Assembly: GCA_044892525.1 (NCBI GenBank)
Contig: CM097885.1
Location: 248,001-312,000, forward strand
DNA length: 64,000 nucleotides
Direction: 5' to 3'
Origin: Schmidtea polychroa
Taxonomy: Eukaryota
The position numbers and the translations under genes were made by a program. The notes below the pieces were generated by a model, which was given only the letters and a program-made list of their open reading frames with translations, was not told where the DNA came from and ran no database searches. Shown one piece after another: positions 12,796-50,846 of this stretch; the stretch's first letter is position 1; every line of letters starts with the position of its first letter.

Positions 12796-15700
12796 TGTTG
12801 GCGTATGTGGGGAAAGAGAAAATATGCCCACCTGATCATCATACATCCCAAGTACTCTCTTCCGCTCCGATACTTCCCATACATACTCCAAAATGATCAA
12901 ATACATATTCCCACGTATGAGCCCGTGGTGGTGTTCCACGTTGGTGCTGCTCACACGGGTTGGAAAAGGTTAGCAGGTGAGCCCCTGCCTTAGGACTACT
13001 CCTAACCCTTTCTCGGTTCGGGTTCCATGGTGCCATAGAAGGTCTTACCCGTTTCTTCGCTCCTAATTCAGTCCAACCCTGGTCCAAAGGGACGACATTT
13101 GCGCTCGTACTATGTCTCCAGGAGCACCTTTTACTCAAATCAACCACAGCAAATCACACATACCATGAAAAAAAAAATCAAAGACTTCAAACAGTTGTAT
13201 TAAAGCGAAACATAAAAATACATTCACCATTAATTAAATAAGAACAAAACATCAAAGGTCATGTACAGGATAACGTCAACTTCTCCGAGTTCCTTCATAC
13301 CGCACAAAGATTGAGACAAATGAGAAAAAGGAATTCATTACGAAAACACTTCTCCTTCTGCGATCATTTCGTCAATGTCGACGGGCAACCGGCGATCTTC
13401 GAGGAATTTGATGCCGTCGGCCGGAACTACCCGAAATACTTCTTTCGTAGGGATAGAATGGGTGATTGTAATTTCCTTGATCGTCGATTTGGCTGCAGAT
13501 AACGATGCCTCGAGCGCGGCCATGGCGTTTCTGCGCTTCTGATTTTTCTCTGAGCGCGTCGGTCTCTTACGCTTTCGAGGTGGAAGAGTGGCTCCTGCTG
13601 GAGGCCGCGTGAGTGGCGACGCGAGGACTGGAGCCAAGATAGGGTCCGATGGACCGCCAGCCATAGGCCGATAGCCAGAAAGAACTGGGGCGGGAATTGG
13701 TGGCAATTGTAGGCCGTGTCCCTTGCAACTGATGGTTGATGAGGTTTCAGTGGATTGATGGTGTTCCGGGAACACGTTAGTCCCATCTTGTATTGGGTAT
13801 TCGCGAACTCGCTTCGCTATCTCGGATTCCGAATATACTTTGTGCAGTGCCTCTGATTGGGCTTTTATGGTTAGCCTCTGGCATCTGCTCTCCTCCAGGA
13901 GACTGTCACGGCAGTGCTCCAAACGTAGAATTTTTCTCTTCTCTTCCTTCATTTGTGGCGGGGAGAACCACGTGCCTTCGTAAAGGTCGATTCTTTTCTT
14001 TAAAGCCCCGATGTATAGATGAAGCTGCGCGATATCTGCGTTTTTATCTGCGCAGGAGAAACATGGGCGAAGAGTTTTCTCAGCAGTTGTAGGAGTAGTC
14101 ATCTAAAGAATGAGAAGTCCTTTATTTACATCATTAAAATCCTTTCTACTATTTGTTTTCTTTTTATCGTGAGCTTTATCCTGCCACATGTGCATACAAT
14201 CAGGATTGTCCCCCACATCCATACCTTTGACATCACTTAACTCATCCAAACCGTAAACCTTCAAATCAACTCATCATATCGTTCGTAAGGAAGAAAAAAA
14301 AATGAGAACCATCACACGTTATTTCTCTACCCATATTGATATTGTACCTAGGTTCCTGGGTCGACAGTTATCATCTAATCGCAATCAGTTACTCCTTACC
14401 ACTAATATATTTTTTCACTTTTATTTATTATGACCCATTGAAGGTGTGTCTACTCCCTTGCTATTATGGCTTATTGAGTTATGCCTGCTTTAATTTAGAA
14501 GAAGTAGTTCCATGCTGTTGATGCATTTTTGCGCTGTGTTAGGTTAAAACGAATGTGTTAAAAATTATTGTAAGTATTAATTTCCCCCATAAATTATAAT
14601 TTAATTATTTAAATTTTCGCATTTTATGTTGTCATAACGACGCATATTAGTATGTAGTTGTGTACTGGTTTCAGACTCTACCTGATGTGCGCTAATGTGT
14701 ATTATTTAGTTTTACTCAATTATCGCTGTCCTCTCTTAGCAAATTCTAGACATTGTGTCGGTTAGTGTACTTGATCTCGTCGCTTATTTATGCATGCCTA
14801 CGGACACATGCTACTATGACGCAATGATGATGTCGACTCACTCACGTCCCATGTATTAGTGGATTTATCTGTGTGTGGGTTTGGGTCTGCTTATCTCAGT
14901 TATAACATTATTAGCAGATGGGCTAGACGAACGGAAGATAAGGAGTCAGACTTATAGAAATAACGATTGTTATGATTTCAAGATGGCCTAAATCTGTTAT
15001 CGGGTAGCAAATGGATTTAATTTCTATCTCTCTCGTGAATGTTGACTATTCTCAAAAACCTAATCGTTTCATCGACTTGGCGCAAATCGTTCCACAATCG
15101 AACCGCTGGAATATTTTATCTACGCTACTTGCCTCTCTGCAATAGTCGTTTCTCGATCAGATGGAAAATTTATTGATAATTTGTTCGGAATGGTCGATGA
15201 AAATTTCCTTTAGGACTGTAGTAAGTGCTTATGATTAATTAGAACTTTGCTGTTTACTTTCCTGTCAGGACGAATCCTTATCGATGACAGTAGCTAATCG
15301 AAGGTTGATAACTAAGTCTCCTACTCGTCCAATAACATATCACCGCGACGGGTTGAATCGCTAACGTTCTCTTAATTTATCAATTCTTGGAAATATAGAA
15401 TGCTCCAGATTTTTTATCATTCATCAAGAAAACGAAAATGGACGTTAGAATTATCAGTGAGGTTCGAGAATTTCATTACCCTCAAGGATAGTCGGTGTTC
15501 ATATTCTGACGAAAAGAAGTCACCTAGCTCTAAATTGAATATGGCCGAACTCAAACTCGGATTAAATATCGAGAAATGTCGTCAATCTCCTAGAATTTTC
15601 AGTCAGCACGTTGTCGGCATCGAAACAGTATCGCTCAGAAGTTTCCTCAATCGAAAGTTTGCGACGGCTAATTCTCCAGATAGCACTCGATGAAAGGATC

Positions 15701-17040
15701 ATTGACTCGATTCGTTTTCTCTCACAGGGTTTCCTCACCCCTCACAACCCACCCAAGGACAGTACGCATTTCTGCCCACTGCCCTTGGACCGTCGTGAAG
15801 GACAACTCGACCCGACTTATCTCAAATCCTTCTCCAATAAATGTGCAATTAATAAATTCATATATGATCAAACAAATATGGGAATAATGAAATTAAAAGA
15901 AAAATCAAATAAATAAATGTTTACCTGGTGGCCACGCCAGCCGGATTCTGGGTATGATGACTCTTGCTAACGTAGGTTTTTACATTCATTTAGCAATCAT
16001 TGTAATACTAATATCCATGTAGATACTTGGCTGGTTCGGTCAGTGCAATTTCTGAGTATTCATATTCATAAGCTCTCTCTGAAAATGCATACGTAATTTA
16101 GCCGCATCATACCCGAGCTCCAGAGGACGTCGTCGCCAGCATCATAGAGAGAAAGCAACATCTTTTGGTTTTAAATATAAATTTTATTGAAAAATAAAAC
16201 GTCTTTTGATATTAAATTCATAATAAACATTAAAAATATCATACTAAAATTCAAAACATAATTTACCAAAATTCTCCGAAGGTGTTGAGATTGAAATCAA
16301 AGTCTTGTAAATTTTTCCTTAACGTTTTATTCTTCTCAACTGGATTCGATCTCGACTATTATCTGCCTCTAAGTAATATCTGTTATGTCCAAGTATGAAT
16401 ATTGTTCGTAAGTCTGTGCTCGTGAGTGGTTCCTAGCTTAGTCCTGTAGAGTTTCGGGTTAGAATGATAATTTTAAATAAATTTTACCTGTAGAGTTTCG
16501 GGTTAGAATGATACTCTACAGAGTTTTGTTGCTCTTTATATATATTTTTCCGTCCAATCAGGACACACCTTGCTTGTAATTTTGTTATTTATTATTATTT
16601 TATGTTTTTTCTTATCGTAGTATATTATATTTTAATGACCCTACCTATTTCTATTATTGTTTTATTTATTTTCCTATTTTTTATTATTTTTCTCCTATTT
16701 TTCTGTGGTTTTATTGCTATTTTATTTGTAACTTCATTTTTTGTTTTAATTAACCTTATGGATGATTTTATTTTTATTTTGTTTTCCTTTAGTTTTCGTT
16801 TGTTTTTCTTAAATTTTGTGCCATTTTATTTCTCTTTTACTGTTGTGCTCATTGGGTGCCTTCCCTTTTGTCTTATTTCCCCTTTACAGGTTTTGTTATT
16901 TTATTTAGTTATTCTTGTTTCTTTATGGATGTTTAATTTGTTTCTTCCTATGTTTCTCGTAATTTTTATATGTTTTTATTTTATTTACTCTATCTCTTCC
17001 TGGGTTCGTTTTTCCAACACCTTCAGAGCTTGGCCCAACA
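12796..17040 (-). repeat. 3' LTR (4245 bp)
   Basis: Direct repeat of 39113-42807; begins TGTTGG, ends CCAACA. Confidence 0.97.
13338..14102 (-). CDS. 254 aa protein encoded inside the LTR (CxxC, coiled coil, Pro-rich, basic NLS-like PPRKRKRP)
   Basis: ATG directly preceded by the acceptor-like TTCTTTAG; intact only in this LTR copy. Confidence 0.6.
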   Translation of the reverse strand: MTTPTTAEKTLRPCFSCADKNADIAQLHLYIGALKKRIDLYEGTWFSPPQMKEEKRKILRLEHCRDSLLEESRCQRLTIKAQSEALHKVYSESEIAKRVREYPIQDGTNVFPEHHQSTETSSTISCKGHGLQLPPIPAPVLSGYRPMAGGPSDPILAPVLASPLTRPPAGATLPPRKRKRPTRSEKNQKRRNAMAALEASLSAAKSTIKEITITHSIPTKEVFRVVPADGIKFLEDRRLPVDIDEMIAEGEVFS

Positions 17041-17295: not shown

Positions 17296-17955
17296 TTATG
17301 TTTGTTGTTCGGTTGCCGTTGATGATGGATGATTTGGTTGTTGGGTTTCGATGTTGTAGTATATTCGGCGACTTGTGGACGGTCTGACTGTTTCTGCGAT
17401 GGAGGTTCGTTGTCGGAGATTTTCTTGGATTACGTCAGCCATATTAGCTTCTTGGGATCTTCGAGACGATCTTTCCGGTACGGGGTGACTTTTCTTCCAA
17501 ACTTGGTAGATATTATGGATTTTTAGGAGGATGATTACCATGATTACGGTGGTTTCGACGATTACCACGTAGAGGAGTTCATGGTGGTCATTTATTTCTT
17601 TGGCGATTTCTACTGGTTCGACTGGGTTTTGTATTTCTTGATGTTGGACCTGCTGTTCTAGCTGATCGAGTTGGTGAATTTGGTCCAGGATTCTTTTATC
17701 AATGATTTTGCACATGGGGTGGTTATTATAGATTAATCTGATATTGTTGACGTACGTTCGGGTAACTCGAATGTTGTCGGTAAGACGGGTTTTTATGATA
17801 CTTGGATAGAGGCATGATTTGGCTGTTGGTTCGGTCTTTTGGTGGGATTTTCTGCTGTCTCGAATATGTTCAATTTCGGGCTTTACGGGTTGTCGCCTTG
17901 TCAGATCAAGGATTATTGTCATCATCAGAATTATTATGATTGGTTTGTTTTTCAT
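17296..17955 (-). CDS. Accessory ORF: predicted type I membrane protein
   Basis: N-terminal hydrophobic run (PIIIILMMTIILDL), second hydrophobic run (LLYVVIVETTVIMVIILL), acceptor ATATCAG just before the ATG at 17955. Confidence 0.7.
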   Translation of the reverse strand: MKNKPIIIILMMTIILDLTRRQPVKPEIEHIRDSRKSHQKTEPTAKSCLYPSIIKTRLTDNIRVTRTYVNNIRLIYNNHPMCKIIDKRILDQIHQLDQLEQQVQHQEIQNPVEPVEIAKEINDHHELLYVVIVETTVIMVIILLKIHNIYQVWKKSHPVPERSSRRSQEANMADVIQENLRQRTSIAETVRPSTSRRIYYNIETQQPNHPSSTATEQQT

Positions 17956-18014
17956 ACTACTGATATACATTTAGTAATTTTACACACATTTATATACATC
18001 GCTTTTTGTCGGTT

Positions 18015-18722
18015 TTAATTTTGTCGTTTCTTTTTAGGGTTTTTCTCCCGGATTCGCATTAATTTAGACTCCGCTTTAATGACTCTATGTCGGAGTTCCG
18101 GCAACATTTCTAGTTGCCTCTCTTTCTCCTGGACCTTGTCTGTCAAGTGTCTTATCTCTCTTTTCAAGGTTTTTATCTCCTTCTTCTTTTCTTTCAGGTT
18201 CCGTTCCAGTTCCAATTGTAGGAAATCATTTTCCTCTGGGTCGTTTGTCTTTGAGTTTTGTTTCTGCCGTTTTGTTTCTATTTCTCGATATTTACTATTC
18301 CATTTCTCCATTTCTGTACTTTCTTGTACTTTTACTTCCAGCTGGTTTTCCAACTCCTTGATGGTTTCTTGTCGTTTCCTTGCTTCCGTTTTCCAATAAT
18401 CTTCGATTACTTCGTTTTCCTTGAAACTGGCTCTCTCCTGCCATAATTCTTCCGCGATCTTTTCCCAATTTCTCCCTCGCTTTCTTTGTTCGTGAAGCCA
18501 TTCGTTTTCTACTTCTACTTCTTTCTTTATTTCCTCCAATGTTTTGCATTCCCTTTTTAGCACCTTTATCATTCTTCGATCATCCATATATTTGTCTATC
18601 ATCCTTTCTTTTTCCTGTTTCTCCTCTATCAACTCGTCCTTCGGCGTTTTCATTTTTATGGGGTCTGTTTCAATTTCTCCCTCTTCTAGCTCGGTCATGG
18701 TGGATATTTCTTCTATTTTCAT
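18015..18722 (-). CDS. Accessory ORF: coiled-coil protein
   Basis: E/K/R-rich heptads; likely start MKIEEIS after the acceptor TTGTAG. Confidence 0.75.
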   Translation of the reverse strand: MKIEEISTMTELEEGEIETDPIKMKTPKDELIEEKQEKERMIDKYMDDRRMIKVLKRECKTLEEIKKEVEVENEWLHEQRKRGRNWEKIAEELWQERASFKENEVIEDYWKTEARKRQETIKELENQLEVKVQESTEMEKWNSKYREIETKRQKQNSKTNDPEENDFLQLELERNLKEKKKEIKTLKREIRHLTDKVQEKERQLEMLPELRHRVIKAESKLMRIREKNPKKKRQN

Positions 18723-18883
18723 GTCTACAATATTTACAATTAATAGTGCGCTACAGTGCGGCTTATACTTATACATTTATAGGTAATTTTATATAATCAG
18801 GGTAAATATTTTTATCGTACTAATAATTTTTTGTTGGGATACAGGTCCCGATTTTTTATATATTTTATCTTTTCCATTTATCT

Positions 18884-19921
18884 TTATGCAAAGGTTTCTT
18901 CCTGGCCTACGTATCCCTCATCGCTTTCTACTGACGTTTGTAGTTGGAGTGCGATGGGATCGAATGGGATGTAGTACCGGGGAATCTGCGCTCTAAGCTC
19001 CTGAACTTCGTCTCTTAGCGCTCTTGACACGTTGAGTTCCTCGTCCAACAGGTATGTTAGATACCTGGTTTCGTCGTCCCTTACCTCGATCTGTTTTTCT
19101 AACTCCTCCGCCTTTTCGCCGTTCTCCCATTTTTTGATCTCCTTTTCGAGGTTCTTGATATTTTCGTCATACATCTTTCTCTCGTTTTCCAATTTCTTGT
19201 TCTTACCGGCTAGCACTATATTCCTTTGTTCTAGTGCCCCCTTATAGCCGTTATTGTCTCTTTCAAGATCTGCCACCTTGTTTACGAGTTCGACGATTCT
19301 ACCTGACTGTTGTAGGATCATCTCTTCCATGGCGGTATTCTCCTGTTCCTTTATAGACAGTTTCATGGCCAGATGCCTTTCAAATTCCATGGCCTTGGTC
19401 TGCCAGGTTTGACTTCTAGCTGCTACTTTCCGGAGCCTTCTTAGCTCTTCTTTCTGATCCAGGTTTTCTTCCCATTTCCCTTGATTACTCTCGTGTTCCA
19501 ATCTCTGCGGTAATTCTCTCATCTCTTTTTGGATTTCTCGATGTTGTTTTTTCCACTTTCTGGCTTCTGCTAGTAGTTGGCGGGTCTTTCTTTCCTCCTT
19601 TTGTTTTTCTATTTCCCGCTTCTTATTCTCATCCGTTAGTCTTTTTCTTGACTCTTGTACCAGCTGCTTCAGGTAATGCCCGTGTGCCTCTTGCCTGGTA
19701 TTTTCTAATGCCGACCATTTGGCGGCTCTTTTGCAGGCCTCGGCCTCCGCCCGTAAATTCTGTACTAACCACTGGAACTGGTGGTTTTCCCACTCTCTTG
19801 CCTCCTCGAGGTAATTTCGTGTTTGATTTGATAATTGTGCCATCACTTTGGCCCATCTTTCTCTATGTATTCTACTGATGTTTATTTCGTTATTTGGGGC
19901 TTCCGTTTGATCTTGAGTCAT
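18884..19921 (-). CDS. Accessory ORF: 345 aa coiled-coil protein
   Basis: Long uninterrupted ORF, heptad pattern, acceptor TATTTAG 6 nt before the ATG. Confidence 0.8.
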   Translation of the reverse strand: MTQDQTEAPNNEINISRIHRERWAKVMAQLSNQTRNYLEEAREWENHQFQWLVQNLRAEAEACKRAAKWSALENTRQEAHGHYLKQLVQESRKRLTDENKKREIEKQKEERKTRQLLAEARKWKKQHREIQKEMRELPQRLEHESNQGKWEENLDQKEELRRLRKVAARSQTWQTKAMEFERHLAMKLSIKEQENTAMEEMILQQSGRIVELVNKVADLERDNNGYKGALEQRNIVLAGKNKKLENERKMYDENIKNLEKEIKKWENGEKAEELEKQIEVRDDETRYLTYLLDEELNVSRALRDEVQELRAQIPRYYIPFDPIALQLQTSVESDEGYVGQEETFA

Positions 19922-21617: not shown

Positions 21618-21977
21618 TTATTGGCTGGAAGAGTCGGCCTCTTGTCCGCCCTCTTCCCTACTGGTTAACCATTCTGACCAGTCTTCTATCTCCTCTCGCT
21701 CCATCTCTTCCGCGATTCTTATTAACTCCTCTTCTTGCACCTGGCTGTATCGTGATATTCGGTCTATCTCTCGCTGCATTTGTTCTATTTTTATTCGTTG
21801 GTCTTCGATTATTCTTACATAACTGAAGCCTTTATTTAAACTTTCGACTAAGCTTCTTTGTACAGCGAGTCCTTGTTCCTGTAAATTCGAAATCACTTGA
21901 GTTAACATTGCACATTGTTGTTTCCACATTTCCTCGGTTGTCGTACTGTGATTTACTTCCTCGCCTATTCGCTCCAT
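21618..21977 (-). CDS. Accessory ORF: small acidic coiled-coil protein
   Basis: Open frame between pol and TRAF; first ATG at 21977. Confidence 0.6.
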   Translation of the reverse strand: MERIGEEVNHSTTTEEMWKQQCAMLTQVISNLQEQGLAVQRSLVESLNKGFSYVRIIEDQRIKIEQMQREIDRISRYSQVQEEELIRIAEEMEREEIEDWSEWLTSREEGGQEADSSSQ

Positions 21978-22145
21978 TCTTAATTTATATATACTTTTCA
22001 ACCCTTATCCAATTTTATTTTTATATTATTTATCCCCATCGTTATATAATATTGATACCGCGGTTATATAAAAATATATCATACTGTTATATAAATAAAT
22101 ATTATCTACTTACTTTTTACAATCTATATACAGTCATAATCCTTT

Positions 22146-32900: not shown

Positions 32901-35900
32901 TCCGTTTCGCTTTCCTCGTCCGATACCGGTTCTTTCTCTTCCTCTTCGTATTTTGGAGGTTCGTCTTCCTCTTCTTCTGATTTACTTTCGGTCTCGCCAA
33001 TGTCTGTTTCTACGAAAATTCCTTTCCTGACTTCCCACTCTTTATTTTCCGCATTCCACATCCTTTCCCAGGGAGTTCGTCTGCAAGATCTAGTACTTAG
33101 TTTCTTTATTTTTCCTTGTAGTTCCTTTTCCTTTAACCACTGTTGATGAATTTCAATTATCTCTACTGATTTTTGGTATAGCGTTTTCATCCTGTCCCGT
33201 ATCTCTTTCTGGTAGGTTACATCTCTTGTTCGGAATTCGTCCATGGGCAATATTCTAATTATTTGATGATTATCCCACATTCCCATTTCGCTTAACGATG
33301 TGTCGTCTTCAGCCCGTAATATTATTTTATCGTACATCATGACTACATCATCTATCATCCCGTCGCTACTCTCGCTTCGTACTTTTTCCGTTATCTCTTG
33401 GTTTATCTTGGTTACTAAGTCATCCACCGTACTCTGATTACTCATCTTTATTCGTCGTTTCTCCTCGTTTGGTAACCATATGGTTATTTCTAATTTCTGC
33501 GGTTGCGTTTCTTTTAATCTTCCGTATTTGTGGATCAAATTTATGGTTCTCCAATCGCTCATCCTGAGCAATTCTGTATCTCGTAATCGGCTCATTAGTT
33601 CATGCATATCTGGAGTTCGTCTTGCTATGAGTAAATCCCAGTTATCTTCGACTTGTTCTTGAATTTGTTTGATTAGTTTATCTAGATTCCGCCTTAAAGT
33701 GCATTGTTTTATTTGTTCCAATTTCAGCTTGATATTGAAATCGTATTCAGCCTTGGCGTCTTTAGCCCATTCATGAACATTAGTTGGTTGCTTCTCTTTA
33801 TGCAACTTCAATATTTGAGTTTCTCCTGGCCAGATCAATGCATCTATTAGGTGCATGTCTGGCTTAATTTGTTCTCCTTGGTATTGATATAAATACTCTT
33901 TCTTTCTCGAGCTGCCCAAATGTTCTCTTATCCAATCGAAAAGATCGTCTGTAACTGTATTTTTTATCCATATTCTCTCGAGTCCTTTACTCGTTCCGAT
34001 TTTATTACGTATTTTTTCCATATACTTCTTTATTATCGCTTTCTCCTCGCTTGGTATTAAATCTTTTTCGTTTCTTTCCAGTTTCATTATCTTTTGTATG
34101 AAGCGTCTGTATGGTATGATGTCAATGAAATCCTGGTTTCTTACCACCACTGGAAGTATTTCTTTTACTTGTTTTATCGCCTCTTCTTTTTCCTTTCTCA
34201 GTTTCATCTCGATATTCTCATCTTCACTTTCGCTTGCCACATCGCTTTCACTTTTCTCCTCATCTTCTCCGATCTTTTTCTTTAGTTGTTCGATATTTTC
34301 ATTTAACTGCAATATTTCTCCACCCAGGCTACTCACATTATCCTCATCGTCATCTGTTGACAATACCTTCTTTGTCGTCCTCATCATATTAATTCGTAAA
34401 TTCCTCATCCTTGGTACTTTCTTTAGCTTCTGGTTCTCGAATATCGTTAGCTCCTCTGAGTCTAATTCTTGTATCATATTATGATTTAGATGATTAATCT
34501 GCTTCTCATTTTCGTTATTTTCCGCTTCTACTCCGGTTTTGATTTTCTCGTGTTCCTTTTCGATTTTATCTTTTATCTTTTTCCAGAATATTTTCTGAAT
34601 TCTCTGATTCCCTTTTAATGGTGTTGTTGGGTTTTCCTTTTTCGCTTCTGTAATCGTTTCTTTCGGTGTCTCTGGTTCGATCAATGGGACTACTCTTGGA
34701 TTTTTCCCGTAATTGTAACAATATTGCTCTTTTATCTCCTTTACCATCCTCATCATATTTATTCGTAATGGTTGTTCTTGTCGCTGCTGAATTCGCTCTC
34801 TTTTTATTCTCTCTTCCTCAGCTTGTAGTCTCTGCCATTCTTGTGCATGTTGTTGTACTTCATAATTGTTAAGATTCTCGGTGCTCCTCATCAGGCGTAT
34901 ATTCTGAGTTTGTTGTGGTACTGGTTCTTGTCTTGGCCTCATCATTTGTTGCATCATTTGTTTCATTTGAGAAATTTCTTGCATCACATTCATTTGTTTT
35001 CCCTCACTGGGGTTACTTTGTCGTTGCGGATTTGGTGCATAATTATTGTTTCGTTGTGGTGGTCGTTGTTGTTGGCCCCTTTCTCGGCAATCTCTTGAGA
35101 TGTGACCTGGCTGACCGCAGTTAAAGCATCCTCTCAACTGGCATATATTTTCCGTGTGTCCTCGTCGTCCGCATCTATTACAATTTGCGTTTCGGTAACA
35201 ATCTCTGTACCAATGTCCTGGTTTACCGCATGTTCGGCATTGTTTGTTATCGTTCGTATTTCGTCGATTATTAAAATTATTTCCATTGTTCGAGTTGTTG
35301 CGTTCGCTGTTATTCCCGTTTGATCGTCCTTGCGGTGGTTTGAAAATTTGATGCGCACCTGGTATAAACTGATTCATCTTCGGTTCATGATTATTGTTAT
35401 CTCCATTTTCTGTTTTCGCCGTAGCTGCTGCGATTCTTCCCTCCTCTTGCATGACATTCATTTGTGCCGGGAGGTGTAGTTCGCATCTTGTGGCCCAATC
35501 TATGGCCTCCTCTAGTGTTTTACACATCTGACATCCCACCGAGGCTCTTACCTCTTCCCGGCGTAGTCCTTCTATGAAATAACCAATTAGGTTCTCTTCC
35601 GGCAAGTTTCCGTTCATGGCCTTCGTTGCCAATCTTCGCAATTCGCTTGCGTATAACGTTATTGATTCATTGGCTCTTTGTTTTCTACTCGCTAATTCTC
35701 CTAGGGCTTGATTTATTGGTTTGCTGGCCCCGAATGTTTTTCTCAAAAATGTTTTGATGTTTTCCCAATTGTCTAATTTCGTATTTCTTTCTTTTGCTTC
35801 TAGATACACTTCGAGTGCGCTATCGCACAAAAACAGAGGCATTCGTTTACTAATTGCTTCCGCTGTCCATCCGCACACATCGATATAGACTTCAAAATTT

Positions 35901-35992
35901 GTTATGAACGTTGCCAACTTGTTCGCATTCCCGTTAAACGGTTCGCCTCTAAATTTTTCTTTATACTCGTCGGTTTTTACCACATTCATCAT
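29888..35992 (-). CDS. gag: Polyprotein part 1: Gag (capsid, 3 CCHC knuckles) - ubiquitin-like domains - Bcl-2-like domain - envelope glycoprotein ectodomain
   Basis: Retrotransposon capsid motifs (PFNG..F..F..GW..L..SA..W..F..RKQ..ESI..Y..FIEGL) and three CX2CX4HX4C at 35087-35239. The frame stays open without an ATG up to ~36415. Env-like part starts after the hydrophobic MMTMMIWMLCTSGAAG at 31207. Confidence 0.9.
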   Translation of the reverse strand: MMNVVKTDEYKEKFRGEPFNGNANKLATFITNFEVYIDVCGWTAEAISKRMPLFLCDSALEVYLEAKERNTKLDNWENIKTFLRKTFGASKPINQALGELASRKQRANESITLYASELRRLATKAMNGNLPEENLIGYFIEGLRREEVRASVGCQMCKTLEEAIDWATRCELHLPAQMNVMQEEGRIAAATAKTENGDNNNHEPKMNQFIPGAHQIFKPPQGRSNGNNSERNNSNNGNNFNNRRNTNDNKQCRTCGKPGHWYRDCYRNANCNRCGRRGHTENICQLRGCFNCGQPGHISRDCRERGQQQRPPQRNNNYAPNPQRQSNPSEGKQMNVMQEISQMKQMMQQMMRPRQEPVPQQTQNIRLMRSTENLNNYEVQQHAQEWQRLQAEEERIKRERIQQRQEQPLRINMMRMVKEIKEQYCYNYGKNPRVVPLIEPETPKETITEAKKENPTTPLKGNQRIQKIFWKKIKDKIEKEHEKIKTGVEAENNENEKQINHLNHNMIQELDSEELTIFENQKLKKVPRMRNLRINMMRTTKKVLSTDDDEDNVSSLGGEILQLNENIEQLKKKIGEDEEKSESDVASESEDENIEMKLRKEKEEAIKQVKEILPVVVRNQDFIDIIPYRRFIQKIMKLERNEKDLIPSEEKAIIKKYMEKIRNKIGTSKGLERIWIKNTVTDDLFDWIREHLGSSRKKEYLYQYQGEQIKPDMHLIDALIWPGETQILKLHKEKQPTNVHEWAKDAKAEYDFNIKLKLEQIKQCTLRRNLDKLIKQIQEQVEDNWDLLIARRTPDMHELMSRLRDTELLRMSDWRTINLIHKYGRLKETQPQKLEITIWLPNEEKRRIKMSNQSTVDDLVTKINQEITEKVRSESSDGMIDDVVMMYDKIILRAEDDTSLSEMGMWDNHQIIRILPMDEFRTRDVTYQKEIRDRMKTLYQKSVEIIEIHQQWLKEKELQGKIKKLSTRSCRRTPWERMWNAENKEWEVRKGIFVETDIGETESKSEEEEDEPPKYEEEEKEPVSDEESETDVTSESETETRHIHAMRKKEREYADMDSEEAMEAREREEKERYKQLGDILATGTKNQKRQVVALANIILKTSENIHNLREMAKAIEEYRQYNEWYPEQLEQIIRKWRNQEWAQDTQERYRIRVKYPDKSIEDIEVHPTTKIRELKKKLAYETPFHLQLFGKSLDDNADVGITPMRLGEINVLTMAETLGKPIKRKSKSSKTTKGSLSTPSPNKVASKSNETEEIEEIILEDSDEGAGERSPILVRWPTGAEIWTTSQPSTSYQQPNKLNIEEIIDNTTETETDEQFQRPKGPTKATPEGQTDKIIDEWNEWLRNNDSSLPRTDNERNPNYETTREAGTMMEKRAKGRPKKQGEKPEFKTREQLKQEQGQVRLKKLDKIVWDLKEAQPTIERGEKWIRELVKDMLIITNPQLRRLWQRKVASVDARQLWNTISGIIPKLIKEKTKTTKTDWEETRRVIEQLTLNANDDEHHLVVLTYLMYNLMGLAARKIPNKQFANHVEMTVTIIENTIEPHIIRAGGWKRLIQAPRKNEQERSMQIRLKKLLNELEWELPLKDPASRKASINSLMMTMMIWMLCTSGAAGFTIYDCDNSIIGERYSLRDIEECRQASPNKLDIVKKKVSYHVYQESDFIRTQARECVVSKKVLAYYCGQYSYSTLILPGLDKEIVPIQREDCKELFRTGAMRIRDGVTIHGQSGMIKTESIYVAGRVKSTDGSCNGGTYTIRGEVISGVVVIESYTVELKEYEAQFDANNYQMKTNPACRATENVCRTGISTIIYEANTQKCRLQLLKSALFNEVKGEIYENEDDDEENGNVRMRNGKPVPPSPKEKRLTTQKTPTALITDDPDIGMRFIREKETTECDSIVYRTNYAGIYMSRQVIDRAVGKVSTEDVKLYLYANNKMDFLFHRGQTTMQKVYYDLIQNDCSLNKEILKTKLAIAITHPDNTMPSLPLPDGHFGRMVGEVMYVPRRLRDCQENPQYHQGNAQTSWKLVTKGKTDSFNPSLEL

Positions 35993-37270
35993 GACTGGTT
36001 CTTGTAACTCTATTGTTTCTTTTAAATTTTCCAGCGGTGTCGCTAAATTATGGACGGATAATTCTTCTGTTGACCCGGTTAGGTTGTTTGATATATCGGA
36101 TAGGCTTTCTCTGCTTCTAGATCGACTAGGGGTGTATCCGAGGTTTTCTTGGTCAAATGTTGGTACTTGATTTGTTCTTTTTGCTCCTTGTGATCTTCCT
36201 CTTTGCTGTTTTATGGATCGTCCTCTTCTGAGCTGTTCTAGTTCGTCTCCTGAAATTAATACGTCTCTCGACTTACTTGAGGATCTGAGATTCAGTTTCT
36301 CCGTGGTTCCTTTATACGCCTCTCTATCGTCTCTTAAGGGTTTCTCGGCAATTATCGGCTGCTGACTTGAGCGAATTCGGTTTTGTCGGTGTTCCGAGTC
36401 CTTGGCAATTGGTTGTTAGCGTTATGAGACGTCTTCCGTTCTTGGAATCTTCGGGTTGTGTTACTCCTACTGAGCGGGTTCTGGATTGGTTATTTCTAGT
36501 TGGTCGTTGATTTCTTCGAATTCCTTTGTGCAGGTTCTGGATTGGCTTGATTGACTGGATTGGTTTGGTATCTAAAATGAAAAAATGATCTCGTGTTGCA
36601 TCTGCTCACACGACTTCATCATTCTTTCTTCAACATTCAAACACAGACACCGTTTAGGGCCTCTGTTATACTTCTCCTTATTTCCCCATACAATTTCTCG
36701 TGGATTATAGTCACCCATCAACCCATAGTTTTCGTCGATTTTAAATTATCTATTTAGGGTAGTAATAATTATCTATATGGTCGTATGAATCATCTATAAT
36801 TATCATTTATAATATCGATAGGTCGTTGTCAGTTACTGCTTATCACCCCCCATATTCTCTTAATCCTTTTACGCGGTTCCGCTATTTTACTTAATCTTTC
36901 GTCTCTGTTCCCCTTCACTCGGTTCTACTCTGAACCAAAAAAAAAAAAAAAATCGGATTCGTTTATCCGGTTTAAACCAAAATTCTGTAGACTTTTGTCT
37001 ACTTACTTGGGATCCCCTTTAATTAATTAATTACCTTCCTTTTTACTCGTCATTTATTCCCACTTATTCTCTACTTTTACTATCTCTTCAATTCATTTTC
37101 CTTTTCTGATTCTCCTTTTCTACTAAAAGGGTTTTACTTTCATCTTCTACGAGCTCGTTTAATCCTTTCTAAATTCGACTTCTCGTATCCCAATTCAATT
37201 TGTTTCTAGCTAGCTTAATATTCTATCTCATTATCAACTTAAATATTATCCAATCATTTTCTAGGCCTTT

Positions 37271-37625
37271 ACGACTGGCTGGCACTTTTCAACAGCTCAA
37301 TCTTCTTCCTTCTGACCGGTTGGACTATTCGACAACTCGATCTTACGACTGGCTGGCACTATTCAACAGCTCAATCTTCTTCCTTCTGACCGGTTGGACT
37401 ATTCGACAACTCGATCTTACGACTGGCTGGCACTATTCAACAGCTCAATCTTCTTCCTCTCCAAACTGGCTGGACTTTTCACAGCTCAGTTTTTAATTTT
37501 TTTTCCTGACCGGCTGGACTTCTCGACAGCTCGGCCTTAATATCTCCCGACTGGCTGGACTTTTCACAGCTCAGTTTCAATTTCCCTGGCCGGCGGGACT
37601 ATTCAACAGCTCGGCCTTAATATCT
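37271..37625. repeat. Tandem repeat in the 5' leader (74-bp unit built from ~35-39 bp subunits)
   Basis: ACGACTGGCTGGCAC.. recurs at 37271, 37345 and 37419; degenerate (C/T)GGCTGGAC..TTC.ACAGCTC subunits continue to ~37625. Confidence 0.9.
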
Positions 37626-38198: not shown

Positions 38199-38678
38199 TT
38201 AACTGAAGTAAATCGTGTGCTTCTCCTTTATTGCACATACACATAAAGAACAATGCGTTAAACTGACGGCGCATTCGTCGCAATGGCTAAGGTGTCCACA
38301 AGGTAGCATTAGAATTCTGGCAGGTCGCGTCTTACAAATGTTACAAGTTCTCAAGGCCGCTGCTTTTTCTATTATCGAGGTTCGTATTCTCTGAGATAGA
38401 GTTTTTACTTGTTCGCGTATTTTCACATATTCGAGGTTCAGAGCGGGGTCGTCGAGTCGTTGCTGCATCCATTGGTAATGGACAGACAAGTCGGTGTCGG
38501 TATTTGTTGACCCCAATCTGTCGGTTAGAAAGTTTTGTTTGGATATCAGCGGTGCGTTGTGGCGTTGTTGCTCTAGGGTTTCTATTTGTTGCAGTTTTTC
38601 TCTTAACGTCTTTATGGAATCGTTTTCTATGTCGACGAACCGGCTTAGTCGTTGTAGATGTTTCCTAGCTTCTGACAT
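38199..38678 (-). CDS. Coiled-coil + C-terminal IAP-type RING finger protein, upstream of gag
   Basis: CNIC..ARILMLPCGHLSHCDECAVSLTHCSLC..IKEKHTIYFS* matches the C-terminal RING layout and aromatic tail of IAP-like ligases; no BIR domain; acceptor TTTTTTAG 2 nt before the ATG. Confidence 0.85.
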   Translation of the reverse strand: MSEARKHLQRLSRFVDIENDSIKTLREKLQQIETLEQQRHNAPLISKQNFLTDRLGSTNTDTDLSVHYQWMQQRLDDPALNLEYVKIREQVKTLSQRIRTSIIEKAAALRTCNICKTRPARILMLPCGHLSHCDECAVSLTHCSLCVCAIKEKHTIYFS

Positions 38679-39087
38679 ATCTAAAAAAGTATGTTGTCAT
38701 TACTCGGTCTCACTTATAAAAATAAAAATAATATTATCGTGTTATAATCAATGTTCGTTTGGCTTTGTTCGCTATTGTTTCTAGTTTATGTATTTTATTC
38801 AATCTCTAATAATTCTTTTTTAATTTAATTCATTTAAAATTAAACAAAATTAGTCAATTCCCATTTTCTCTTCTCTTCATATTCAATCACATTCATTCAA
38901 ACTTATTTAGGTTCGTTTTTGTTCATAGCATGTTCTATTTTACGCAAAGACAGTTCGCATCATCATCTTAATACACTATAATATCAATTCATTTCAGTCC
39001 CGATTCCCTTTTTTATTATAATTAATTAAATTGTTAGTCTAACACATCGTAATACAGTAATAGGCAATCAAACAATTCGAAATCACA

Positions 39088-39105
39088 ATCCCGGCTGAGC
39101 CCCCA
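39088..39105 (-). promoter_or_regulatory. Primer binding site complementary to tRNA-Pro 3' end
   Basis: Minus strand TGGGGGCTCAGCCGGGAT, 16/18 identical to the classical tRNA-Pro PBS TGGGGGCTCGTCCGGGAT; 7 nt from the 5' LTR. Confidence 0.85.
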
Positions 39106-39112
39106 AAAATCA

Positions 39113-42100
39113 TGTTGGCGTATGTGGGGAAAGAGAAAATATGCCCACCTGATCATCATACATCCCAAGTACTCTCTTCCGCTCCGATACTTCCCATACA
39201 TACTCCAAAATGATCAAATACATATTCCCACGTATGAGCCCGTGGTGGTGTTCCACGTTGGTGCTGCTCACACGGGTTGGAAAAGGTTAGCAGGTGAGCC
39301 CCTGCCTTAGGACTACTCCTAACCCTTTCTCGGTTCGGGTTCCATGGTGCCATAGAAGGTCTTACCCGTTTCTTCGCTCCTAATTCAGTCCAACCCTGGT
39401 CCAAAGGGACGACATTTGCGCTCGTACTATGTCTCCAGGAGCACCTTTTACTCAAATCAACCACAGCAAATCACACATACCATGAAAAAAAAAATCAAAG
39501 ACTTCAAACAGTTGTATTAAAGAGAAACATAAAAATACATTCACCATTAATTAAATAAGAACAAAACATCAAAGGTCATGTACAGGATAACGTCAACTTC
39601 TCCGAGTTCCTTCATACCGCACAAAGATTGAGACAAATGAGAAAAAGGAATTCATTACGAAAACACTTCTCCTTCTGCGATCATTTCGTCAATGTCGACG
39701 GGCAACCGGCGATCTTCGAGGAATTTGATGACGTCGGCCGGAACTACCCGAAATACTTCTTTCGTAGGGATAGAATGGGTGATTGTAATTTCCTTGATCG
39801 TCGATTTGGCTGCAGATAACGATGCCTCGAGCGCAGAAGAGTTTTCTCAGCAGTTGTAGGAGTAGTCATCTAAAGAATGAGAAGTCCTTTATTTACATCA
39901 TTAAAATCCTTTCTACTATTTGTTTTCTTTTTATCGTGAGCTTTATCCTGCCACATGTGCATACAATCAGGATTGTCCCCCACATCCATACCTTTGACAT
40001 CACTTAACTCATCCAAACCGTAAACCTTCAAATCAACTCATCATATCGTTCGTAAGGAAGAAAAAAAAAATGAGAACCATCACACGTTATTTCTCTACCC
40101 ATATTGATATTGTACCTAGGTTCCTGGGTCGACAGTTATCATCTAATCGCAATCAGTTACTCCTTACCACTAATATATTTTTTCACTTTTATTTATTATG
40201 ACCCATTGAAGGTGTGTCTACTCCCTTGCTATTATGGCTTATTGAGTTATGCCTGCTTTAATTTAGAAGAAGTAGTTCCATGCTGTTGATGCATTTTTGC
40301 GCTGTGTTAGGTTAAAACGAATGTGTTAAAAATTATTGTAAGTATTAATTTCCCCCATAAATTATAATTTAATTATTTAAATTTTCGCATTTTATGTTGT
40401 CATAACGACGCATATTAGTATGTAGTTGTGTACTGGTTTCAGACTCTACCTGATGTGCGCTAATGTGTATTATTTAGTTTTACTCAATTATCGCTGTCCT
40501 CTCTTAGCAAATTCTAGACATTGTGTCGGTTAGTGTACTTGATCTCGTCGCTTATTTATGCATGCCTACGGACACATGCTACTATGACGCAATGATGATG
40601 TCGACTCACTCACGTCCCATGTATTAGTGGATTTATCTGTGTGTGGGTTTGGGTCTGCTTATCTCAGTTATAACATTATTAGCAGATGGGCTAGACGAAC
40701 GGAAGATAAGGAGTCAGACTTATAGAAATAACGATTGTTATGATTTCAAGATGGCCTAAATCTGTTATCGGGTAGCAAATGGATTTAATTTCTATCTCTC
40801 TCGTGAATGTTGACTATTCTCAAAAACCTAATCGTTTCATCGACTTGGCGCAAATCGTTCCACAATCGAACCGCTGGAATATTTTATCTACGCTACTTGC
40901 CTCTCTGCAATAGTCGTTTCTCGATCAGATGGAAAATTTATTGATAATTTGTTCGGAATGGTCGATGAAAATTTCCTTTAGGACTGTAGTAAGTGCTTAT
41001 GATTAATTAGAACTTTGCTGTTTACTTTCCTGTCAGGACGAATCCTTATCGATGACAGTAGCTAATCGAAGGTTGATAACTAAGTCTCCTACTCGTCCAA
41101 TAACATATCACCGCGACGGGTTGAATCGCTAACGTTCTCTTAATTTATCAATTCTTGGAAATATAGAATGCTCCAGATTTTTTATCATTCATCAAGAAAA
41201 CGAAAATGGACGTTAGAATTATCAGTGAGGTTCGAGAATTTCATTACCCTCAAGGATAGTCGGTGTTCATATTCTGACGAAAAGAAGTCACCTAGCTCTA
41301 AATTGAATATGGCCGAACTCAAACTCGGATTAAATATCGAGAAATGTCGTCAATCTCCTAGAATTTTCAGTCAGCACGTTGTCGGCATCGAAACAGTATC
41401 GCTCAGAAGTTTCCTCAATCGAAAGTTTGCGACGGCTAATTCTCCAGATAGCACTCGATGAAAGGATCATTGACTCGATTCGTTTTCTCTCACAGGGTTT
41501 CCTCACCCCTCACAACCCACCCAAGGACAGTACGCATTTCTGCCCACTGCCCTTGGACCGTCGTGAAGGACAACTCGACCCGACTTATCTCAAATCCTTC
41601 TCCAATAAATGTGCAATTAATAAATTCATATATGATCAAACAAATATGGGAATAATGAAATTAAAAGAAAAATCAAATAAATAAATGTTTACCTGGCGGC
41701 CACGCCAGCCGGATTCCGGGTATGATGACTCTTGCTAACGTAGGTTTTTACATTCATTTAGCAATCATTGTAATACTAATATCCATGTAGATACTTGGCT
41801 GGTTCGGTCAGTGCAATTTCTGAGTATTCATATTCATAAGCTCTCTCTGAAAATGCATACGTAATTTAGCCGCATCATACCCGAGCTCCAGAGGACGTCG
41901 TCGCCAGCATCATAGAGAGAAAGCAACATCTTTTGGTTTTAAATATAAATTTTATTGAAAAATAAAACGTCTTTTGATATTAAATTCATAATAAACATTA
42001 AAAATATCATACTAAAATTCAAAACATAATTTACCAAAATTCTCCGAAGGTGTTGAGATTGAAATCAAAGTCTTGTAAATTTTTCCTTAACGTTTTATTC

Positions 42101-42807
42101 TTCTCAACTGGATTCGATCTCGACTATTATCTGCCTCTAAGTAATATCTGTTATGTCCAAGTATGAATATTGTTCGTAAGTCTGTGCTCGTGAGTGGTTC
42201 CTAGCTTAGTCCTGTAGAGTTTCGGGTTAGAATGATAATTTTAAATAAATTTTACCTGTAGAGTTTCGGGTTAGAATGATACTCTACAGAGTTTTGTTGC
42301 TCTTTATATATATTTTTCCGTCCAATCAGGACACACCTTGCTTGTAATTTTGTTATTTATTATTATTTTATGTTTTTTCTTATCGTAGTATATTATATTT
42401 TAATGACCCTACCTATTTCTATTATTGTTTTATTTATTTTCTTATTTTTTATTATTTTTCTCCTATTTTTTTGTGGTTTTATTGCTATTTTATTGTAACT
42501 TCATTTTTTGTTTTAATTAACCTTATGGATGATTTTATTTTTATTTTGTTTTCCTTTAGTTTTCGTTTGTTTTTCTTAAATTTTGTGCCATTTTATTTCT
42601 CTTTTACTGTTGTGCTCATTGGGTGCCTTCCCTTTTGTCTTATTTCCCCTTTACAGGTTTTGTTATTTTATTTAGTTATTCTTGTTTCTTTATGGATGTT
42701 TAATTTGTTTCTTCCTATGTTTCTCGTAATTTTTATATGTTTTTATTTTATTTACTCTATCTCTTCCTGGGTTCGTTTTTCCAACACCTTCAGAGCTTGG
42801 CCCAACA
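39113..42807 (-). repeat. 5' LTR (3695 bp; 550 bp shorter than the 3' LTR)
   Basis: Direct repeat of 12796-17040 lacking 13518-14068; adjacent to the PBS. Confidence 0.97.
42211..42330 (-). promoter_or_regulatory. Putative LTR core promoter and first mini-intron (same in the 3' LTR at ~16443-16562)
   Basis: CCAAT box (42322-42326), minus-strand TATATAAAG (~42303-42313), Inr-like TCATTC ~30 nt downstream, then a 44-nt GT..AG segment (42255-42212). Confidence 0.5.

Positions 42808-44067: not shown

Positions 44068-44269
<202 letters not shown>

Positions 44270-49731: not shown

Positions 49732-50846
<1,115 letters not shown>

Follow-up and report, generated by a model that had tools for sequence, protein, structure and literature searches.

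What is the giant repeat-flanked structure on contig CM097885.1 of Schmidtea polychroa, and what are its many extra genes for? We analysed a window of 64,000 nucleotides (positions 248,001 to 312,000 of the contig), in which a preliminary description made from the letters alone had recognized a Gypsy element with a cell-death and NF-kB signalling cargo. We conclude, with a probability of roughly 0.7, that window positions 12796-42807 hold a young but defective Burro-type giant Ty3/gypsy endogenous retrovirus-like element, the cargo of which most likely acts on host ubiquitin/TRAF/apoptosis pathways.

Architecture of the element

The claim of a giant element of about 30 kb with LTRs, a PBS-like site, gag and pol genes and a target-site duplication is borne out by the repeats, the flanks and Pfam (Table 1). 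The LTRs have TG...CA termini, the 4-bp GGAC duplication lies on either flank, and the internal region between the LTRs (17041-39112) measures 22,072 bp. The two LTRs are 99.8% identical, differing by 7 substitutions, two 1-base indels and one 550-base indel. The earlier count by eye, about six substitutions plus small indels, came near the first two figures and missed the third: 550 bases at about 39835 are missing from the 5' LTR and are present in the 3' LTR and in other copies. The complement of the PBS-like site resembles a tRNA 3' end (...CCCGG CTGAGCC C CCA). A search for a tRNA gene matching this site found none; the motif is common to more than 2,000 sites, and the matches are other repeats.

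Table 1. Features of the element, in window positions
Feature	Position	Strand	Description
Whole element	12796..42807	-	30,012 bp, Ty3/gypsy-type LTR element
5' LTR	39113..42807	-	3,695 bp, TGTTGG...CCAACA; direct-repeat comparison
3' LTR	12796..17040	-	4,245 bp; direct-repeat comparison
Target-site duplication, 5' side	42808..42811	-	GGAC on the element's strand, read directly
Target-site duplication, 3' side	12792..12795	-	GGAC
PBS-like site	39088..39105	-	18 nt, 7 nt past the 5' LTR end
IAP-type RING ORF	38199..38678	-	159 aa; coiled-coil N-terminus and C3HC4 RING; 5' of gag
Internal tandem repeats	37269..37612	.	units of 34/74 nt and 41 nt; leader region from RING ORF to gag
ORF1	29888..35992	-	2,034 aa; gag aa 52-145, CCHC knuckles aa 251-303, N-terminal glycoprotein part
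Class III-type viral fusion glycoprotein	29400..31285	-	Pfam Monjiviricetes_fusion; split over ORF1 and ORF2 in the window copy
Private 10-base deletion site	30011..30013	-	gag-env-pol frame broken inside the glycoprotein domain
ORF2	22146..29891	-	2,581 aa; C-terminal glycoprotein part with TM, pol, ankyrin blocks
119-aa ORF	21618..21977	-	no family assigned; 19/20 sibling copies intact
Full TRAF	20140..21528	-	462 aa; RING, TRAF-type zinc-finger region, coiled coil, MATH
345-aa coiled-coil ORF	18884..19921	-	intact in 15/20 sibling copies, among them variants of 78% nt identity
253-aa coiled-coil ORF	18015..18776	-	7/17 found copies intact (crude extraction)
224-aa ORF	17296..17970	-	one TM segment aa 133-151; intact in 8/12 copies found, among them variants of 82-83% nt identity
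LTR sense ORF	13338..14102	-	254 aa, LTR positions 2939-3703 (3' LTR)

The core genes are recognized by Pfam models at or above their cut-offs (Retrotrans_gag, zf-CCHC, Monjiviricetes_fusion, RVP, RVT_1, RT_RNaseH, Integrase_H2C2 and rve), as are three parts of the cargo: Ank_2/Ank_4 in two blocks, MATH and RING in the 462-aa ORF, and zf-C3HC4_3 in the 159-aa ORF. The pol order is PR-RT-RNase H-IN, with Ty3-type RT_RNaseH and Integrase_H2C2 models.

A broken gag-env-pol polyprotein

The element had been called intact. It is not: a 10-base deletion splits the polyprotein into ORFs of 2,034 and 2,581 aa, and the 5' LTR is short by 550 bases. All 29 sibling copies have 10 extra bases at the deletion site, and 14 of the 29 are open across the entire 4.2-kb stretch around it. 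The final ~40 aa of ORF1 are out of the family's frame, and the frame of ORF2 stays open upstream to 30032. In sibling copies gag, extra domains, glycoprotein, PR-RT-RH-IN and ankyrin form a single frame of about 4,600 aa. Because the deletion falls within the glycoprotein, the full polyprotein cannot be made from the window copy.

ORF1 contains gag (Retrotrans_gag 40.5 bits, zf-CCHC 34.9 bits). Pfam places PR at ORF2 aa 354-445, RT at 667-825, RNase H at 888-1017 and integrase at 1125-1317, and finds no dUTPase-like match between PR and RT in this element. Two ankyrin blocks follow, as had been claimed, at ~1606-1680 and ~1980-2019, both matched by generic ankyrin models. The C-terminus of ORF2 holds a Cys-containing segment between hydrophobic stretches at aa 2249-2267 and 2509-2535.

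In the glycoprotein, a signal-like hydrophobic stretch is followed by a Cys-rich ectodomain and then by a TM anchor at ORF2 aa 135-153; the earlier reading of an envelope was correct on both model score and anchor. Monjiviricetes_fusion scores 123.8 and 74.5 bits in the two pieces of the window copy and 245.5 bits (E 1e-72) in the one-frame stretch of a sibling, where PR follows in frame. A PDB search by sequence gave no match for the glycoprotein. N-glycosylation sequons are almost absent, with one in about 600 aa.

The extra domains between gag and glycoprotein are where the preliminary description went beyond what profile searches support: its TRAF, RING, ankyrin and envelope calls pass, and its Bcl-2-like and ubiquitin-like calls are sub-threshold. 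The Bcl-2-like stretch (ORF1 aa ~1498-1549) scores 13.1 bits against a cut-off of 31.4, with E 0.14 over profile positions 49-100. The ubiquitin-like stretches (ORF1 aa ~827-873 and ~1151-1185) give sub-threshold E values of 0.083 for ubiquitin and 0.089 for PI3K_rbd. Neither call found a match among 1.84 billion proteins, and a PDB search was likewise unsupportive. A low-confidence single-sequence fold (pLDDT 40) is helical over the Bcl-2-like region and has a strand-strand-helix arrangement at the second ubiquitin-like site.

Accessory genes and their conservation

The TRAF is complete, with RING, zinc fingers, coiled coil and MATH all present by Pfam and PDB comparison. Pfam assigns MATH_2 (88 bits; MATH at aa 316-453) and zf-C3HC4 (RING at aa 30-68). 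PDB matches are to TRAF3, TRAF2 and TRAF6: TRAF3 coiled coil and TRAF-C align to aa 243-453 (TRAF3 E 3e-28), and TRAF6 RING-ZF chains align to aa 27-157 (E 1e-14). The 159-aa ORF is an IAP-type RING protein, as had been proposed, with zf-C3HC4_3 at 34.6 bits and the RING domains of cIAP1/2 and XIAP matched in the PDB at E 1e-8. We rejected an IAP identity for it: Pfam detects no BIR domain in this ORF or elsewhere in the element, the interval from 5' LTR to gag has no additional ORF able to hold one, and the likeness to IAPs is confined to the C-terminal RING. The coiled-coil and membrane ORFs of the earlier account are also present, as the 345-aa and 253-aa ORFs and the 224-aa ORF with its TM segment; like the TRAF and the 119-aa ORF, they lie 3' of pol.

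The cargo is neither confined to one copy nor evolving neutrally; most siblings are open. All 40 scored TRAF DNA matches, window copy included, are 96-100% identical, and 84 of 92 scored copies encode the TRAF protein without stops. The RING ORF is free of stops in 131 of 150 scored genomic copies, at identities from 100 down to 43% (hand count). Pairwise Nei-Gojobori dN/dS, calculated from intact copies only and from the best-scoring matches, and so on a biased sample, is 0.16 for the 119-aa ORF, 0.14 for TRAF, and 0.07, 0.17 and 0.35 for the 345-, 253- and 224-aa ORFs. Within the polyprotein it is 0.050 for the pre-glycoprotein segment with the Bcl-2-like part, 0.023 for the glycoprotein, 0.029 from TM to PR and 0.053 from PR onward. 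Judged from these sequence comparisons, purifying selection acts on the cargo, with pairwise dN/dS of 0.02-0.35 throughout. Since its ORFs are in addition open in most copies, they serve the element.

A member of the Burro kind

The family, its cargo set and the host-manipulation hypothesis are already known, so the novelty that the preliminary description implied does not stand. The text of PMC6431247 on Burro/GYPSM1 of Schmidtea mediterranea gives the same architecture, cargo list and hypothesis; the 'tinkerer' idea, that such elements act on host survival or immunity, was put forward by Jurka 2007 and Arkhipova & Yushenova 2019 (PMC6431247). Burro elements are described there as more than 30 kb in total, of which the internal region takes up more than 20 kb (up to 25 kb), and as present in thousands of copies. 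They encode gag with CCHC knuckles and PR-RT-RH-IN; between gag and pol, and in frame with them, lies env, a fusion glycoprotein of mononegavirus type. Their cargo comprises ankyrin, MATH/TRAF, an IAP-related RING motif, BCL2-like (reported for Burro-2, -3 and -4), ubiquitin-like and coiled-coil 'Smc' parts (PMC6431247). In part of another account BURRO1 is called 'highly abundant and active' and is de-repressed on smedwi-2 RNAi (PMC8532177).

The element in our window resembles these in its 30,012 bp, its 22,072-bp interior, TRAF, RING, ankyrin and in-frame env, whereas its BCL2-like and ubiquitin-like stretches are only sub-threshold. On the published descriptions it is of the Burro kind; its assignment to a named Burro subfamily would be tentative. 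Burro1 is described as having a 4,873-aa ORF1 that contains MATH_TRAF_C, and a dUTPase-like domain is reported (PMC6431247). By contrast, the polyprotein here is about 4,600 aa without MATH, the complete TRAF has an ORF of its own downstream of pol, and neither a BIR nor a dUTPase-like match is present. The same genome contains another class, with MATH inside open frames of ~4,791 aa, which fits the Burro1 description.

Two further groups invite comparison. GAG-ENV-POL Ty3/gypsy 'errantiviruses' with class III (HSV gB-type) fusogens occur in Platyhelminthes, Nematoda and Bryozoa (PMC13524379). Our element shares with them an env between gag and pol and a class III-type fusogen, the latter by Pfam rather than by structural comparison. 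The available text of PMC13524379 names neither Schmidtea nor Burro and mentions neither signalling cargo nor 30-kb sizes; its search took GAG up to 5 kb upstream of ENV-POL, and here gag begins about 4.7 kb upstream of the glycoprotein. The giant Ty3/gypsy elements Ogre/Retand also have very long LTRs and extra ORFs, as described in parts of PMC6431247 and PMC11963269, but they belong to plants, carry extra ORFs of unknown function and lack both envelope and signalling cargo.

What the cargo may do

Baculoviruses, asfarviruses, poxviruses and herpesviruses carry IAP, Bcl-2, ankyrin/IkB-like or TRAF-like genes. The Burro-type element likewise has cell-death and ubiquitin modules of the same kinds on a mobile genome, although the carrier here is an endogenous multi-copy retroelement whose internal region spans about 22 kb. 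It is plausible that this cargo interferes with the survival or immunity of the host, in the way that large DNA viruses use their counterparts. In the life cycle that we propose, the element would replicate as an LTR retroelement, by tRNA-primed reverse transcription and integrase insertion. Its polyprotein would thread the membrane: gag and the extra domains would stay in the cytosol, the ectodomain of the glycoprotein would enter the lumen by way of the signal-like stretch, and PR-RT-IN would be returned to the cytosolic side by the TM anchor. The threaded chain would then be cut by the signal peptidase of the host and by the protease of the element, and the glycoprotein could let the element spread from cell to cell. 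Meanwhile the producing cell would be kept alive or quiet by the RING, TRAF, Bcl-2-like, ubiquitin-like and ankyrin parts, via host ubiquitin/TRAF/apoptosis pathways.

Could the cargo instead serve the element's own assembly or trafficking? RING/TRAF E3 activity and Gag-linked ubiquitin-like domains might supply ubiquitin signals for budding, and ankyrin and coiled-coil parts might mediate nuclear import/export or particle scaffolding. Retroviral budding depends on ubiquitin, the ubiquitin-like stretches are located on the Gag side of the polyprotein, and purifying selection on all cargo shows use by the element, not which use. We nevertheless think this unlikely. A TRAF whose MATH is closest to TRAF3/TRAF2, an IAP-type RING and a possible Bcl-2-like domain converge on one host pathway, and the set mirrors the host-modulating genes of large DNA viruses. 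A precedent for the alternative, in which accessory ORFs serve the element itself, is the accessory protein of C. elegans Cer1, which is required for export of genomic RNA according to part of PMC10309623.

Two more sceptical accounts fare far worse. LTR retroelements do capture host sequence, and some of the 3' ORFs diverge strongly among copies (76-83% nt identity), as pieces of host genes drifting neutrally in a subset of copies might. Such inert passengers are already contradicted by ORFs that most copies keep open even where identity is down to 43-83%, by the dN/dS values given above and by the 3-15 stops in the remaining five frames of the LTR ORF, and we consider them very improbable. 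That the whole structure arose by chimeric assembly, or from unrelated repeats nested in one another, would be more surprising still. Giant repeats are hard to assemble, and the window copy has two odd private deletions; but one 4-bp duplication is common to both ends, and a 1.2-kb junction query is matched whole by 29 other copies (26 over all 1,201 bases, 3 from base 2). Moreover, TRAF, RING and LTR ORF matches recur at corresponding spacings on all four large contigs, with many LTR ORF copies paired at ~26.3 kb.

A gene within the LTR

The LTR contains a sense ORF whose conserved N-terminus is helical and contains Cys/His; it also has a Pro-rich linker, a basic stretch (RKRKRP..KNQKRR) and an acidic C-terminus. 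It is stop-free in 133 of 149 scored genomic copies, at 79-100% aa identity (hand count), and its dN/dS among 16 sequences is 0.175 as a ratio of means, with a median of 0.106. It has neither a Pfam nor a PDB match. Its helical Cys/His N-terminus, basic stretch and acidic tail would suit a nuclear protein. The poly(A)-like hexamers all lie upstream of the ORF, which may therefore sit in U5 rather than U3.

Complex retroviruses have accessory genes, some of which, like that of MMTV Sag, are encoded in the LTR. The Burro-type element is similar in having several accessory ORFs beside gag-pol-env and one ORF within the LTR; it differs in belonging to Ty3/gypsy, not Retroviridae, and in a cargo of recognisable cellular signalling modules. 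The text of section 7 of PMC6431247, Figure 2A aside, makes no mention of an LTR-borne ORF. A conserved LTR-borne gene, seemingly undescribed for Ty3/gypsy elements, may thus be an addition to the Burro picture.

A bolder proposal, which we offer tentatively and consider somewhat doubtful, is that Burro-type elements are 'complex retroviruses' with eight genes, within the Ty3/gypsy lineage. Their 4.2-kb LTR would encode, in U5 and as the first ORF of the genomic RNA, the nuclear-looking 254-aa protein as a candidate expression regulator, and their open TRAF genes (hundreds, in at least three architectural classes) would form part of the published planarian 'TRAF expansion'. Element-borne TRAF genes in such numbers may inflate the expansion that has been reported. 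In the window copy, the 5' LTR has lost most of the LTR ORF.

Identity of the element

The element is a Burro-type giant Ty3/gypsy LTR retroelement. The preliminary description had presented it as an intact 30-kb Gypsy element carrying a cell-death and NF-kB signalling toolkit, an observation that is real and largely correct. The element family, its cargo and its proposed role have already been published, and our main finding re-discovers Burro. Our additions are modest: selection figures, the varying location of the TRAF module, and an ORF borne by the LTR.

The Burro elements of Schmidtea mediterranea were named by Grohme et al. 2018 and described by Arkhipova & Yushenova 2019, whose section on them (PMC6431247) gives a length above 30 kb, an internal region of up to 25 kb and thousands of copies, with Burro1 and GYPSM1 (Jurka 2007) sharing about 97% identity. 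The same section lists gag with CCHC knuckles, AIR1, Smc, MATH_TRAF_C, BIR, ankyrin, BCL2-like, Ubi2/SUMO-like and dUTPase-like parts. It places an env with mononegavirus fusion glycoprotein matches in frame between gag and pol, and proposes that Burro may interfere with apoptosis and ubiquitination in the host. For Platyhelminthes, a 2026 eLife paper (PMC13524379) describes Ty3/gypsy elements of GAG-ENV-POL order whose fusogens are class III. The passages of Li et al. 2021 on BURRO1 (PMC8532177) call it 'highly abundant and active', intestine-enriched and up on smedwi-2 RNAi. Burro elements are the largest known LTR retroelements, and a rare case of retroelements with apoptosis and ubiquitin signalling modules.

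Structure and gene content

A repeat scan and BLAST delimit two long direct repeats. The long ORFs that they enclose are all on the minus strand, and the element therefore reads right to left. On the element strand both repeats start with TGTTGG and end with CCAACA, and GGAC flanks the element at both sides. The element totals 30,012 bp, of which 22,072 bp separate the two LTRs, and its G+C (0.36–0.40) is higher than that of the flanks (0.23–0.35). Across 3,694 aligned positions the LTRs differ by 7 substitutions (K = 0.0019); they also differ by two 1-base indels and one 550-base indel, their lengths being 3,695 bp (5') versus 4,245 bp (3').

An 18-nt PBS-like site, whose complement is shaped like a tRNA 3' end, lies 7 bases past the 5' LTR. 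With its T-loop extension the motif occurs at 2,269 sites in the genome searched (781 Mb, four chromosome-scale contigs). No tRNA gene matching the motif was found, and the two motif sites fetched both lacked a tRNA gene or Rfam family; one inspected site looks like the PBS of another repeat. The complement of the motif is also repeated every 475 bp within a long tandem array on genome contig 1 (G000:C1:130900000-130945000). No canonical polypurine tract is evident immediately upstream of the 3' LTR.

The gene set begins with a 159-aa ORF that has an IAP-type RING at its C-terminus (Pfam zf-C3HC4_3, 34.6 bits); this RING matched the cIAP1, cIAP2 and XIAP RING chains at E 1e-8. A BIR domain is absent, and upstream of gag no other ORF could carry one. 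ORF1 (2,034 aa) has Pfam matches to Retrotrans_gag, CCHC knuckles and, after a long unannotated middle, the first part of a Monjiviricetes_fusion glycoprotein. ORF2 (2,581 aa) holds the remaining glycoprotein with its membrane anchor, followed by protease, RT, RNase H, integrase and two ankyrin blocks, and ends in a Cys-containing segment flanked by two hydrophobic stretches. The glycoprotein, which is followed by a hydrophobic anchor, found no match in a PDB sequence search. Its ectodomain has 14 cysteines but only one N-x-S/T sequon in ~600 residues, unusual for a viral glycoprotein. Five ORFs (119, 462, 345, 253 and 224 aa) lie 3' of pol. The 462-aa ORF is a complete TRAF with RING: its zinc-finger region aligns to TRAF6 RING-ZF chains, and TRAF3 aligns to the coiled coil plus MATH domain (E 3e-28).

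The Bcl-2-like and ubiquitin-like calls of the preliminary description correspond to Pfam matches that are all sub-threshold: Bcl-2 at 13.1 bits (E 0.14), ubiquitin at E 0.083 and PI3K_rbd at E 0.089. The segment containing both found no homologue among 1.84 billion representative proteins, a library evidently without planarian repeat proteins, and the Bcl-2-like piece had no match in a PDB sequence search. ESM Atlas scores of 0.80 and 0.84, the segment search among them, are at noise level. A single-sequence AlphaFold model of ORF1 residues 1130–1575 has a pLDDT of 40, too low for a fold search; in it the ubiquitin-like site takes a strand-strand-helix form, and the Bcl-2-like region is modelled as eight or nine helices.

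Lesions in this copy

This copy is defective rather than intact. The boundary between ORF1 and ORF2 falls inside the glycoprotein domain, and all 29 other copies fetched there have 10 extra bases at about window position 30011. In 14 of these 29 the 4.2-kb stretch around the boundary is fully open, and in the window itself the ORF2 frame stays open upstream beyond the deletion point. In one sibling copy, the unbroken stretch gives a glycoprotein match of 245.5 bits (E 1e-72) that continues in frame into the protease. From the 10-base surplus and the open sibling frames it follows that in this family a single frame of ~4,600 aa spans gag, the extra domains, env and pol, and that the split into two ORFs is a lesion private to this copy. 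The 550 bases missing from the 5' LTR are a further private lesion, because many other elements have that stretch in both LTRs.

The closest sibling element, G000:C2:122385953-122421865 on contig 2, is 99–100% identical in the TRAF, the RING leader and the LTR ORF. Its LTR ORF pair lies 35.15 kb apart versus the usual ~26.3 kb, which suggests an insertion or rearrangement.

Conservation and selection of the cargo

The cargo ORFs are not private to one copy: they recur, mostly open, in sibling copies. TRAF DNA gave at least 360 first-look candidates in the genome, and all 40 that were scored, the window copy included, are full-length at 96–100% identity. By hand count, 84 of 92 scored TRAF protein copies are stop-free, as are 131 of 150 scored copies of the RING ORF, at identities from 100% down to 43%. 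Among 20 further copies, drawn from the best TRAF matches and thus biased to near relatives, the 119-aa ORF is intact in 19, the TRAF in 16 and the 345-aa ORF in 15. Where found, the 253-aa ORF is intact in 7/17 and the 224-aa ORF in 8/12, counts weakened by crude extraction of diverged variants. Several intact cargo variants differ by 17–24% at the DNA level.

Nor does the cargo evolve neutrally, with dN/dS between 0.023 and 0.35 (pairwise Nei-Gojobori); as only intact copies were compared, these values are biased downward, by less than an order of magnitude. Across copies, purifying selection acts on each of the cargo ORFs and on the cargo portion of the polyprotein. These figures give quantitative support to the published 'tinkerer' idea.

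Features of the element and its flanks, in window positions. The dN/dS values of polyprotein segments come from the 14 copies open across the 4.2-kb stretch.
Feature	Position	Strand	dN/dS	Remarks
Element	12796-42807	-		
3' LTR	12796-17040			
5' LTR	39113-42807			
LTR ORF, 254 aa	14102..13338	-		sense, in 3' LTR; LTR positions 2939-3703
ORF1	29888..35992	-		
ORF2	22146..29891	-		
Pre-glycoprotein segment			0.050	includes Bcl-2-like part
Glycoprotein (dN/dS for ectodomain)	29400-31285		0.023	
Anchor to protease			0.029	
Protease onward			0.053	
119-aa ORF			0.16	3' of pol; no family
TRAF, 462 aa			0.14	
345-aa ORF			0.07	3' of pol; coiled-coil, no family
253-aa ORF			0.17	3' of pol; coiled-coil, no family
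224-aa ORF			0.35	3' of pol; membrane ORF, one TM segment
Protein-primed B-family DNA polymerase (PF03175)	389-2991	-		two overlapping frames
Asparagine-rich low-complexity coding repeats	3279-4700			9-15-nt periods; upstream of left-hand polymerase gene
193-aa open frame	5398-5979	-		
154-aa open frame	47955-48419	-		TATA-binding protein domain, PF00352, E 3.6e-14
A32-like packaging ATPase and rve integrase with poly-isoleucine interruption	48450-49118; 49657-50850	+; +		
Protein-primed B-family DNA polymerase (PF03175)	52001-54634	-		broken across three frames
Inverted duplicates	55227-55676; 60055-60600	-; +		
Protein-primed B-family DNA polymerase (PF03175)	61110-63725	+		open over 871 aa
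Tandem units and microsatellite	57755-58224; 58444-58876; 51315-51710; 43930-44392			21-22-nt, 144-nt and 198-nt units; long ATT-type microsatellite

Position of the TRAF module

Burro1 has MATH_TRAF_C within its 4,873-aa ORF1, whereas the polyprotein of the window element is without MATH and its TRAF has an ORF of its own downstream of pol. When the genome was searched with a MATH profile and the best 150 of 1,551 candidates were scored, 13 of the 150 lay in open frames of at least 2,405 aa, six of them exactly 4,791 aa; this class fits Burro1. A dispersed class with 487-aa frames accounts for 51 of the 150 (hand count). The TRAF class of the window (479-aa frames) lies outside the scored 150 because of its lower score, 88 bits against the MATH profile. 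The module is thus polyprotein-borne in one class and separate in another, so that its position appears to differ between Burro classes within one genome, classes here being assigned from open-frame lengths. In PMC6431247 the Dugesia (Girardia) tigrina element is described with a TRAF module as an upstream ORF.

MATH exons in frames of ~190–200 aa form dense clusters on contig 2 (G000:C2, ~110–124 Mb and 3–5 Mb). These resemble host TRAF/MATH genes in tandem and differ from the dispersed copies that elements carry. Swapna et al. 2018 (PMC6109357) report that MATH/TRAF is expanded in the transcriptome of S. mediterranea (99 transcripts, 121 domains); the text examined draws no link to transposons, and 'Burro' occurs in it only within 'Burrows-Wheeler'. 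Part of such counts may come from element-borne copies, since at least 84 copies of one TRAF are open and another class has dozens; this is a lead, not a result. Counts of planarian TRAF/MATH families should mask these elements first.

An ORF inside the LTR

A protein search of the genome with the LTR ORF gave 7,020 first-look candidates. Of 149 scored copies, 133 are stop-free at 79–100% identity (hand count), often paired ~26.3 kb apart as the two LTRs of full-length elements. Its dN/dS is 0.175 as a ratio of means and 0.106 as a median (16 sequences, 79–100% identity), and the five alternative reading frames contain 3–15 stops. The N-terminal part of the protein, which contains Cys and His, is invariant, and the sequence includes a basic RKRKRP...KNQKRR stretch; the protein matched nothing in Pfam or, by profile search, in the PDB. 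An AlphaFold model from a shallow alignment (pLDDT 57.8) predicts helices as the only secondary structure, at 17–42, 50–89, 92–101 and 183–215, and a disordered Pro-rich middle. Coiled helices modelled at this pLDDT match unspecifically in fold searches.

Every AATAAA or ATTAAA hexamer in the LTR precedes the ORF, the most downstream one being at LTR position 2915. If polyadenylation uses such a hexamer, the ORF would lie in U5 and come ahead of all other ORFs in the genomic RNA. We found no mention of an LTR-borne ORF in section 7 of PMC6431247 or in the literature listings; a figure there or Grohme et al. 2018 may show one. The conserved ORF is a candidate for transcript and protein work.

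Proposed mechanism

We propose that the polyprotein threads the membrane from cytosol to lumen and back to cytosol, and would then be cleaved by signal peptidase and the element protease. The glycoprotein would mediate cell-to-cell spread, and the RING, TRAF, Bcl-2-like, ubiquitin-like and ankyrin parts would target the ubiquitin, TRAF and apoptosis pathways of the host. The part of this scheme that has direct support comprises the retroelement hallmarks, the single polyprotein frame of the family, the selected cargo and the hydrophobic anchor after the glycoprotein. The main alternative is that the cargo modules serve particle assembly and trafficking.

Four sets of contigs, of unspecified kind, cover all 30 bins; they do not inform on transcription or on transcript starts and ends. 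Contig joints such as 37802-39086 (three sets) and 22032-38716 (one set) end non-canonically and are short-sided, and other copies of the element with variant DNA may account for them.

Flanking sequence

Maverick/Polinton-like genes lie on both flanks of the element in the window. By eye, the 193-aa frame on the left resembles the C-terminal portion of an integrase from a retroelement. At E 0.001 it matched no Pfam family, and it may be a piece of a different LTR element. The TATA-binding-protein-like frame adjoins the Polinton-like ATPase, and the Polinton-like element may carry it as cargo.
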